From Escherichia coli (GTDB lineage: Bacteria; Pseudomonadota; Gammaproteobacteria; Enterobacterales; Enterobacteriaceae), in NCBI RefSeq assembly GCF_030013595.1, contig NZ_CP122768.1: a DNA stretch of 64,000 nucleotides; one strand, 5' to 3'. The position numbers and the translations under genes are program-made. The notes beneath the pieces were generated by a model. It was not told where the DNA came from. It saw nothing but the letters and a program-made list of their open reading frames with translations, and did not search any database. Of this stretch, positions 61,464 through 63,258 are shown one piece after another (within the stretch, counting starts at the first letter, position 1; each line of letters begins with the position of its first letter).

Positions 61464-61513
61464 AAAAACAACGGGCGTGCCATACGCCCGTTTCAATACT
61501 TAACGCACATGTG
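61464..61513. repeat. Degenerate copy (about 47/50 identical) of the icd terminator/att-like sequence found at 63042..63090
   Basis: aaaaacaacgggcgtgCCatacgcccgtttcaataCttaacGcacatgt versus aaaaacaacgggcgtgTTatacgcccgtttcaataTttaac-acatgt; direct orientation; seen directly in sequence. Confidence 0.6.
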
Positions 61514-61958
61514 TTTTGGTTTAGTCATCATCCGGTTATATGTATTTTAGCCAGGAATGGGTTAAACCATTCCTATATAACTAAAAAATTGAAACCTTAT
61601 TCTCATGTCATGCTTATATTCGTCATTATCGTTATATAAAAAGGCCAACCATAATGTTTAGCAAATTGGCACAAAGTAGTATAAAGGCTATGTTTTAATT
61701 ACAGGATGTTCAGTCATTTGAATGTATAACATTTTAGCTAAACAAATCTAAAACGAAGTGAATAATTTAATGTTTTCACTAAATCTCATTTTGTTTAATA
61801 TCTATTGAGATTTCTTGCTTTAAATTTTGTTTTATATAAACAATGGTTTTAATTTTTAATTAATTTGTTTTTTTGAGAGGGTAATATACTCATATGCAAA
61901 ATCAAGAAATAAACATCCTAATGAACCATATTAAATACCGTGGGATAAGACATAACAA

Positions 61959-62282
61959 ATGAAGTGGATAGTAATTGACACGGTAATTCAACCTACATGC
62001 GGCATATCTTTTTCAGCCATATGGGGTGATATGAAAATGATCATCTGGTATCAATCTACTATATTTCTCCCTCCTGGAAGTATATTTACACCGGTTAAGT
62101 CTGGTATTATCCTTAAGGATAAAGAATACCCTATTACTATTTATAACATCACACCATTCAACAAGGATTTATGGAGTTTACTCAAAAGCAGTCAAGAGTG
62201 TCCTCCAGGAGAAAGCGAAATAACAAATAAATGTTTACATAATAGTTGTATTATAAAAATATGCCCATATGGACTCAAGTAA
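61959..62282 (+). CDS. iraM: Anti-adaptor protein IraM (RpoS stabiliser), 107 aa
   Basis: [107 protein letters not shown]; preceded by a very AT-rich 700-bp region. Confidence 0.75.
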
Positions 62283-62330
62283 TGGTCTTCATATAAATAT
62301 TCTCGACATGATATTAATAATATCCACATA

Positions 62331-63041
62331 AATAAATATCCTCCGGCATAGCCGGAGGTTTTTCAAATGCGCCTGTAAGGCTCTGTTACCAGCCGCGCCC
62401 TAACAGGCGCATACGATCTGACATTTGCATTCAACTTCGTTACTTACGGCCCGTAAACGGGCTGCCCGGATATGGAATCGATAACTGCTCCCCCATTTTA
62501 TCCTCTTCAAGCTGGTGCTTTATGTAGTCCTGTATCTTCGCCGTGTTCTTACCCACCGTATCGACATAGTACCCTCGGCACCAGAACTCCCTGTTTCTGT
62601 ATTTGAATTTCAAATCCCCAAACTGCTCGTAAAGCATCAGACTGCTTTTCCCTTTCAGATATCCCATAAAGCCGGATACGCTCATTTTGGGTGGGATTTC
62701 CACAAGCATATGGATATGATCTGCGCAGCACTCTGCTTCCAGAATCCGTACGCTTTTCCACTCACACAGCTTTCTCAAAATACTGCCTATCGCCCTACGC
62801 TTCTCTCCGTAAAACGCCAGTCTTCGGTATTTCGGCGCAAAAACTATGTGATATTTACAGTTCCAGCGGGTGTGCGCTAAGCTCTTTTCGTCCCCCATTG
62901 GGACCCCCTTTTGATTTCTTGTTTGACACTTGCAGTTGCCAGACCGCAAGGTGTTTTAACAAATCAAAAGGGGTTTTAATAACTGGCTCAAAGCTGAAAG
63001 CTTTCCGGAACCCCCAGCCTAGCTGGGGGTTTTCTGTGCAC
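62331..63041 (-). mobile_element. IS200, copy 2 (inverted relative to copy 1), about 711 bp
   Basis: Nucleotide sequence reverse-complement identical to 37669..38379 as far as inspected (all embedded ORFs identical, including the end hairpins). Confidence 0.85.
62440..62898 (-). CDS. tnpA: IS200 Y1 (HuH) transposase TnpA, 152 aa
   Basis: Protein identical to the product of 37812..38270. Confidence 0.85.
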   Translation of the reverse strand: MGDEKSLAHTRWNCKYHIVFAPKYRRLAFYGEKRRAIGSILRKLCEWKSVRILEAECCADHIHMLVEIPPKMSVSGFMGYLKGKSSLMLYEQFGDLKFKYRNREFWCRGYYVDTVGKNTAKIQDYIKHQLEEDKMGEQLSIPYPGSPFTGRK

Positions 63042-63093
63042 AAAAACAACGGGCGTGTTATACGCCCGTTTCAATATTTAACACATGTAGAGA
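63042..63093 (-). terminator. icd-type Rho-independent terminator (aacgggcgtataacacgcccgtt followed by gttttt on minus strand), downstream of the icdC fragment and abutting IS200
   Basis: Hairpin plus T-run on the minus strand, immediately 3' of the icd-derived stop codon. Confidence 0.6.
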
Positions 63094-63258
63094 TTACATG
63101 TTCTTGATGATCGCATCACCAAACTCGCTACATTTCAGCAATTTAGCGCCTTCCATCAGACGTTCGAAGTCATAGGTTACGGTCTTGGCGTTGATTGCGC
63201 CTTCCATACCTTTAACAATCAGGTCTGCGGCTTCAGTCCAGCCCATATGGCGTAACAG
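63094..63258 (-). pseudogene. icdC: icdC: detached 3' fragment (165 bp, last about 54 codons) of isocitrate dehydrogenase, the remnant left at one end of an element integrated in icd
   Basis: Minus-strand translation ...[54 protein letters not shown] stop is an Icd C-terminus; homology stops abruptly at 63258, where AT-rich DNA begins. Confidence 0.8.

Follow-up and report, generated by a model that had tools for sequence, protein, structure and literature searches.

IraM is one of three classical anti-adaptors that stabilise RpoS, and its gene is missing from many pathogenic lineages. Within the host RpoS circuit, iraM is regulated by PhoP, and the gene has been placed "on the e14 prophage" (PMC4045071). 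Integration into icd is known to involve an extended attachment (att) identity block (PMC10111431, PMC6379469), and tandem or stacked islands have been described at single att hotspots, which include tRNA genes and icd (PMC10111431). Here we analyzed a stretch of 64,000 nucleotides (nt) from Escherichia coli contig NZ_CP122768.1, hereafter the window, in which iraM lies between two direct copies of a sequence that contains the icd terminator. We refer to this sequence as T and to its copies as T1 (on the ycgX side) and T2 (adjoining icdC, a detached 3' end of icd). T1 and T2 probably represent two generations of the icd end with its terminator, with iraM as cargo of a decayed icd-targeting element. 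Table 1 presents the features of the locus.

Two copies of the icd terminator flank iraM

Inspection of the window with a repeat finder reveals a direct repeat pair at 61464-61507 and 63042-63085 (44 nt ungapped, 91% identity). When the full copies are read by hand, 44 positions are identical, three are mismatched and one 2-nt indel (GC) remains, which corresponds to 94% identity with the indel ignored and 90% with the indel counted. An earlier note on this DNA had described a direct repeat of about 50 bp and about 94% identity, and the 44 of 47 aligned bases plus the 2-nt indel bear this out. A 35-nt T core, searched with up to three mismatches, occurs at exactly two sites in the 64-kb window, where 0 are expected from 100 dinucleotide shuffles; a chance origin of the similarity is rejected on that expectation. 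The placement of the copies also agrees with that note, which had the second copy contiguous with a 165-bp icd 3' end and the first in the AT-rich ycgX-iraM spacer. The gap between T2 and icdC is 3 nt, and the G+C content of the T1 surroundings and of the inter-repeat DNA is 27-31%. Inspection of icdC indicates that its 50-residue translation matches Icd C-termini at 90-100%; it is annotated as a partial isocitrate dehydrogenase pseudogene in relatives and as icdC in MG1655.

Table 1 Features of the iraM locus and its surroundings in the window
Feature	Position	Strand	Basis or remark
bluF	58403-59692	+	
bluR	59897-60628	+	
ycgX (DUF1398 protein)	60849..61253	+	open reading frame (ORF) list; ycgX annotation in relatives
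ymgL small ORF	61306..61416	+	coordinate transfer from RefSeq relatives L001 and L002; sequence reading
T1 left flank	61423..61463	.	possible decayed e14-family arm (CTTTTGATACGTTATTTTATAGCGGTTAAC...)
T1, probable older displaced icd terminator	61464..61513	-	hairpin 61470-61492, then U-tract on minus strand
AT-rich stretch upstream of iraM	61514..61958	+	holds ymgK small ORF 61653-61697, annotated in relatives
iraM, anti-adaptor shielding RpoS from RssB	61959..62282	+	NF007393, PF11183, phrog_4407
IS200C, 711 bp	62331..63041	-	tnpA 62440-62898; IS200C annotation in relatives
T2, icd terminator copy	63042..63090	-	repeat finder, terminator scoring, folding
icdC, detached 165-nt icd 3' end	63094..63258	-	attR side of current prophage
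Right end of current prophage	63259..64000	.	newest layer; intact icd beyond window

Each copy contains a 9-bp G+C-rich hairpin (-15.3 kcal/mol; z-scores of -3.1 and -3.6) followed by a U-tract, and both are predicted from sequence to be intrinsic terminators, scoring positive solely on the minus strand, which is the direction of icd. No minus-strand gene lies upstream of T1, which stands opposite to the direction of ycgX, ymgL and iraM. That is to say, the orientation of T1 is wrong for each of these genes and gives the appearance expected of a displaced icd terminator. It is very improbable that T1 is an independent, selected terminator or insulator for ycgX-ymgL or for iraM that came to resemble icd by gene conversion or convergence. 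The T1 hairpin of the window is intact and located between two co-directional transcription units, which would suit such a role, yet T1 is terminator-like only on the strand opposite its neighbours, and convergence does not explain a similarity of about 50 nt that includes loop-flanking and tail sequence. T1 is also degraded in K-12 and in genomes with a longer island between ycgX and icd (described below), where the orthologous hairpins reach -10.2 kcal/mol and, with a broken U-tract, -11.3 kcal/mol, respectively, versus -15.3 kcal/mol in the window, whereas T2 is nearly invariant between strains. Under the displaced-terminator reading, T1 would now be largely vestigial and T2 the working terminator.

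To place the repeat in a wider context, all genome counts below refer to a set of 5426 complete E. coli genomes. T matches are present in 5412 of them, at a median of two and a maximum of four places per genome, and every T place inspected (about a dozen genomes) falls in the ycgX-icd interval or in an icd-integrated element. With so few copies per genome T is not a dispersed repeat, and a family of the REP or MITE kind was rejected. A scan of genome contigs for the bare hairpin pattern gave at least 120 matches, mostly chance palindromes, and was uninformative on outgroup copy number; six useful icd loci were among the matches listed. In one strain, DA33137, the hairpin centre of T2 is inverted, with GGGCGTATAACACGCCC replacing GGGCGTGTTATACGCCC between stem ends and flanks that have not changed (L002 4851-4880), a change that looks like a hairpin-loop inversion of the template-switching kind.

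Integrating elements and a long island tie both copies to icd

The earlier note had pointed to the att sites of icd-integrating phages as the relevant comparison, and phage 21, e14-like elements and a third element type all prove to carry T together with the icd 3' end beside their attachment site. A 216-nt block comprising T and the last 165 nt of icd is present at 91-96% identity in phage 21, whose record labels its T copy a terminator, and in 27 other phage records. In the 21-like prophages of O157:H7, ST131 and E. albertii, the T block directly follows int and is preceded by three GTTTTGGGGAA repeats. The hairpin of e14 is a variant in which the changes compensate each other, and an arm with TTTTGATAA repeats follows it, while e14-like elements of Citrobacter combine the standard T with an e14-type arm. 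The third element type, in E. whittamii and Escherichia sp. E1V33, carries T as well. Similarity between elements and chromosome stops just past the A-run of T, which is the same place where the flanks of T1 and T2 diverge; T is thus the distal part of the att identity block and not the crossover core. The terminator stem supplied by e14 (GGGAGCG...CGCTCCC, pairing kept; L132 474-530, MG1655, e14 side of icd) is similar to that of the icd terminators on the chromosomes of two Citrobacter relatives (L149 6155-6185; L161 7520-7555), so terminator variants seem to move between elements and chromosomes.

The link between T1 and icd itself comes from a third configuration of the locus, the long island, which was found through a YcgX variant in 19 of the complete genomes and in many draft assemblies. 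It occupies about 6.5 kb between ycgX and icd, in the order ycgX, T1 with an icd stub, an ariR/ymgB-like gene, an iraM orthologue (iraM', 80% nt identity to iraM of the window), trkG, insertion sequence (IS) remnants, a 455-residue ORF, an e14-family arm, T2 and icd. Where long-island T1 is kept, it reads on as TAGCGTTAACATATTCTTGAT, compared with TAGTGATTACATATTCTTGAT at the icd end. The stub consists of the icd stop codon and the last 4-5 codons, with 18 of 21 nt matching and the offset exactly as expected (p=0.002 for the stub taken alone). Alignment of long-island T1 with T2 and the icd end spans 66-70 nt at 81-83% identity (E values of 1.7e-11 to 2.9e-13) and continues into icd coding sequence. 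Because T1 of this configuration extends into the icd stop and last codons, T1 is read as a displaced icd end. The similarity of the window's T1 to icd-downstream sequence, which the earlier note had proposed to check, is far above that of a generic terminator. Beyond these 18-21 nt, icd similarity beside long-island T1 is not significant (p=0.16), and the full 165-bp segment is absent there. At the opposite end of the island, the stretch formed by the arm, T2 and the icd 3' end aligns with e14 over 269 nt (88%) and with a Citrobacter e14-like element over 303 nt (87%). With its icd stub at T1 and its e14-family arm at T2, the island resembles attR at the former end and attL at the latter. In one assembly (L156), an e14-like prophage lies beyond the icdC of the long island, which makes three layers.

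These ends also bear on whether an integrase was involved. Delivery of iraM on a small circular or linear DNA bearing a terminator-like stretch, through homologous (Campbell-type) or illegitimate recombination in T and without an integrase, would agree with the window and K-12, where the repeat ends 3-7 nt before the icd stop codon and no icd remnant stands beside T1. We consider this route improbable, as the passage of long-island T1 through the icd stop into coding sequence and the e14-family arm at T2 are signatures of the integrase type. The anatomy of the locus points to integrase-mediated integration at the icd core.

The arrangement is probably accounted for as follows. The elements that integrate into icd, among them the e14 and phage-21 families and at least one further type, recombine about 165 bp before the icd stop, and each carries a replacement icd 3' end and terminator beside its arm. 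The incoming copy would stay on icd, and the resident icd end, along with all distal DNA, would be pushed to the far side of the element, such that repetition stacks layers and deletions erode them. In the window, the oldest layer (Layer 0) would comprise ycgX, ymgL, the arm-like flank and T1; Layer 1 would comprise ymgK, iraM, T2 and icdC; and Layer 2, the newest, would be the current prophage from 63259 on. The element that brought iraM would have decayed to about 0.87 kb through deletion of its integrase, its arm and the icd stub on the T1 side. T2 and icdC would have served icd until the present prophage arrived, with IS200C inserting later beside T2. Successive integration at the icd 3' end, as the earlier note had suggested, is supported by the long island, by the element modules and by the polymorphism described in the next section.

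Comparison of the two islands suggests how the short form found in the window and in K-12 may have arisen. The short island has T1 (including the T1-specific ATACTTAA), the block upstream of iraM (window 61560-61840, 74% identity to the long island) and iraM in common with the long island. Neither the icd stub nor the ariR-like gene is present in it, nor is any of the DNA between about 37 nt past iraM and T2, and an element arm beside the T2 of the window is absent. The short island would be a deletion derivative of an ancestor resembling the long island. The T1 left flank may be a decayed arm of the e14 family, although its likeness to such arms is weak (fixed-position alignment p of about 0.003-0.035, varying with the choice of null model) and only suggestive.

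Several observations weigh against a decayed icd-targeting element as the source of iraM. Between T1 and T2 of the window, the ORF list contains no integrase, excisionase or recognisable att core; the only substantial ORFs there are iraM and tnpA with overlapping frames, alongside four unmatched ORFs of 40-45 residues. The long island likewise gives no Pfam match to a recombinase except that of IS21. No icd coding trace was found beside T1 or in the inter-repeat segment of the window and K-12, where local alignment scores equal the shuffle mean, and the arm likeness of the T1 left flank is only marginally significant. Shared parts of the short and long islands differ by 20-26%, compared with only 5-8% for the chromosomal flanks, so that separate acquisitions or introgression, in place of a parent and its deletion derivative, are possible. 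By our own reasoning from lambdoid gene maps, the order of iraM followed by trkG is unlike that of a single collinear lambdoid remnant. Similarity between chromosomal iraM and its phage copies covers the coding sequence only (72% nt identity), and a search for homology of the chromosomal iraM flanks to phage DNA found none. Finally, no phage among 50,697 records has both an icd-type att module and an iraM homologue; the two sets, of 46 and 28 records, do not overlap.

Two further observations concern the surroundings of the islands. The long island carries a trkG copy and, directly upstream of its iraM, an extra gene of the YmgB/AriR family (L154 9492-9752 and 11058-12515; L158), and the YmgB-family genes ycgZ, ymgA and ariR are also located just distal in the chromosome. 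These positions hint that the chromosomal YmgB-family genes may have arrived through the same hotspot as the island ariR-like gene. Across ymgC-ycgX (window 57455-61492 versus L151 and L152), long-island genomes differ by 5-8%, compared with about 3% for K-12 and B2 strains, and the whole region of the long-island genomes may have been imported from a divergent Escherichia lineage.

Alleles of the ycgX-icd interval

Comparison of the ycgX-iraM-icdC interval across strains, another check that the earlier note had named, reveals a locus whose polymorphism coincides exactly with the repeat. In 3935 genomes the ymgK-iraM segment is present, and 1037 genomes show a contiguous ymgL, single T and icd without iraM, as judged by one-piece cover of a query from strain KN93. 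The junction between presence and absence of the iraM segment is located exactly at T. In four single-T strains, a T1-type left flank is joined to a T2-type hairpin that is followed by icd or icdC, and one YcgX allele is common to all four of these empty-site strains. Inspection of MG1655 places e14 at 1196209-1211412 and iraM at 1211680-1212003, that is, outside e14, which makes the published placement on that prophage (PMC4045071) imprecise. In K-12 DH10B, e14 is absent, yet T1, ymgK, iraM and T2 are kept beside an intact icd.

The polarity of this polymorphism admits two histories. In one, iraM-less strains never had the iraM element; in the other, the iraM island is ancestral to E. coli and the 1037 single-T genomes lost it by recombination between T1 and T2 or by excision. 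The ancestral-island history is possible but on the doubtful side. T1 and T2 are the exact direct-repeat substrate for such a deletion, the long island is present in divergent E. coli backgrounds, and the single YcgX allele of the four empty-site strains possibly reflects a single event. None of the empty-site T copies, however, carries the T1-specific markers (loop GCCAT and ATACTTAACGC), so a deletion crossover would have to fall in the leftmost 15 nt, and two Citrobacter relatives have ycgX beside icd and no iraM. Together, the Citrobacter data and the missing T1 markers favour, but do not prove, that the single-T strains never had the iraM element. The ancestral-island history would in any case alter only the past of the iraM-less strains, not the identity of T1 and T2.

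Both outgroups show a form of the interval without iraM. In one Citrobacter genome, ycgX and icd are convergent neighbours with one terminator of a different hairpin, a degenerate IS200 and no iraM. In the second, a Citrobacter-like metagenome scaffold (L161 7475-7520), the 174 nt from ycgX to icd hold an arm of the phage-21 type and a terminator. This arm contains three GTTTTGGGGAA-like repeats (score of 59 versus a null of 13.6±2.3), and the adjacent ycgX occupies the position of int in living 21-like prophages, such that ycgX, too, has the appearance of a relic, as the last gene of an older element. The YcgX-like proteins of Escherichia sp. E10V10, E. albertii and one Logan contig were rejected as syntenic outgroups, being paralogues located elsewhere or in prophages.

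IS200C was also considered, since the earlier note had described both iraM and IS200 as bracketed by the repeat. The bracketing stands for iraM; IS200C is a later, unrelated insertion beside T2 and not bracketed cargo. Its assignment to the IS200/IS605 family (IS200C) follows from a Y1 tnpA, an STnc490 region (Rfam RF01405, 62908-63031, 146 bits) and a length of 711 bp, and an identical second copy lies in the window at 37669-38379. A query that includes the IS is covered to at least 80% in only 166 genomes. T2 sites are IS-free in strain 7CC and in K-12, and in 7CC an IS200C lies beside T1 rather than T2, in the same relative position. The first few A's of the T2 unit of the window abut the IS200 left end, and IS-free relatives read ...AAATAAAACAACGGGCG at that spot. 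The direct contact of IS200C with T2 in the window and with T1 in 7CC could be taken to mean that IS200 transposition made the T1/T2 duplication, but this proposal has next to no probability: it is contradicted by K-12 and most genomes, which have both copies and no IS200 at the locus, and IS200 is also found beside unrelated terminators.

The four IS200 sites examined are the two in the window (37669-38379 and 62331-63041), the site beside T1 in 7CC (L001 ~3269-3980) and the degenerate copy in Citrobacter (L149 ~5640-6152). In all four, the left end (GTGCAC...) directly follows the terminator U-tract, and tnpA is co-directional with the terminated gene, which suggests a strong target preference of IS200 for terminator tails. 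Similar behaviour has reportedly been noted for IS1541.

The DNA on the far side of icdC varies between strains. From 63259 to about 63650, the first 276-392 nt of the current prophage match the post-icdC DNA of 7CC, 95-3322, DLL557 and 21AR0173 at 87-97%. In 7CC and 95-3322, this DNA runs into an acetyltransferase gene and a helix-turn-helix gene, and in 7CC further to ompT. In O157:H7, a larger deletion removed the whole region from icdC to ycgV. Strain 7.1_Anguil (L142 42495-43334) is accordingly without icdC, iraM, ycgX, bluRF, ycgZ-ymgABC and more, and the right end of the O157:H7 prophage at icd leads, via a truncated acetyltransferase gene, into an autotransporter gene near minE that is likewise truncated.

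Phage relatives of iraM and comparison with described systems

Sequence relationships indicate that iraM is phage-derived. IraM scores 172.5 bits against NCBIfam NF007393 (cutoff of 121), matches Pfam PF11183 (PmrD) and aligns with phrog_4407 over its full length, and the family is confined to Escherichia. Non-syntenic IraM homologues share 57-73% identity, and all those examined are located in lambdoid prophages of E. coli and E. albertii, on the opposite strand and between Q or stx2 and nanS-p or holin. The proposal of the earlier note that iraM was cargo of an earlier element gains support from these homologues, all of which are morons. The neighbours of iraM have phage relatives as well: YcgX shares 46% identity with prophage YbcV and has a match to phrog_413 (1e-41), and TrkG matches PHROG 1916. 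YbcW, encoded next to ybcV, was tested against IraM and is unrelated. PmrD is a small PhoP-regulated connector that binds a response regulator, and the membership of IraM in the PmrD-named PF11183 would fit a common way of working within a common fold family.

More broadly, the DNA distal to icd could be a layered record of at least three element generations, each of which left small regulators in stress and biofilm circuitry. We offer this only tentatively; in such a record, a first prophage would be represented by ycgX, its last gene, and a second by its remnant iraM (with the ariR/ymgB-like gene and trkG in the long form), and the neighbouring low-G+C bluF-bluR-ycgZ-ymgA-ariR segment may also be domesticated cargo of the same hotspot.

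The process described here, in which att relics with domesticated cargo become stacked at a well-known hotspot, is familiar. The literature that could be searched yielded no mention of the T1 relic, of the three alleles of the locus or of the origin that results for iraM, and what appears new is the specific T1 relic and the origin that it gives to iraM. On this reading, iraM resides in an older, separately bounded relic outside e14, for which about one in five complete E. coli genomes has a precise empty-site allele. The gene would thereby obtain a concrete origin as phage cargo delivered via the icd hotspot, and the three alleles could be told apart by a simple marker. The locus also shows by example how integration, repeated at a single site, may stack decaying att copies and leave domesticated regulators behind.

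Each of the closest described systems shares part of this anatomy. The attL and attR of e14 at icd in K-12 resemble the relic in that direct copies of the icd 3' region lie on both sides of the integrated DNA, the incoming element brings a replacement icd end and its own terminator beside an arm, and the T2 flank of the long island matches the e14 arm. In contrast to e14, the iraM relic is without integrase, excisionase and the distal 165-bp icd segment. The window keeps the terminator part only and the long island 18-21 nt more, and the cargo of the window amounts to 0.87 kb versus 15 kb for e14. The attP module of the phage 21 type has the same 216-nt block, and an arm of this type lies between ycgX and the icd terminator in the Citrobacter-like scaffold. 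That module adjoins an integrase gene and repeated GTTTTGGGGAA arm sites, whereas T1 and T2 of the window are without either.

The cargo itself has relatives on other horizontally acquired DNA. iraL, on the potB island of uropathogenic E. coli CFT073 (PMC4045071), and the iraM homologues downstream of stx2 in Stx2 phages belong to the same family (PF11183, NF007393) as iraM. They differ from it in occupying other loci with other flanks, with conservation limited to the coding sequence. Stacked att islands (PMC10111431) offer the nearest parallel in process, as there too successive integrations shift older att copies outward and produce direct-repeat arrays with decaying cargo. Here, two of the three layers are without mobility genes, and iraM is now a PhoP-regulated part of the RpoS circuit.

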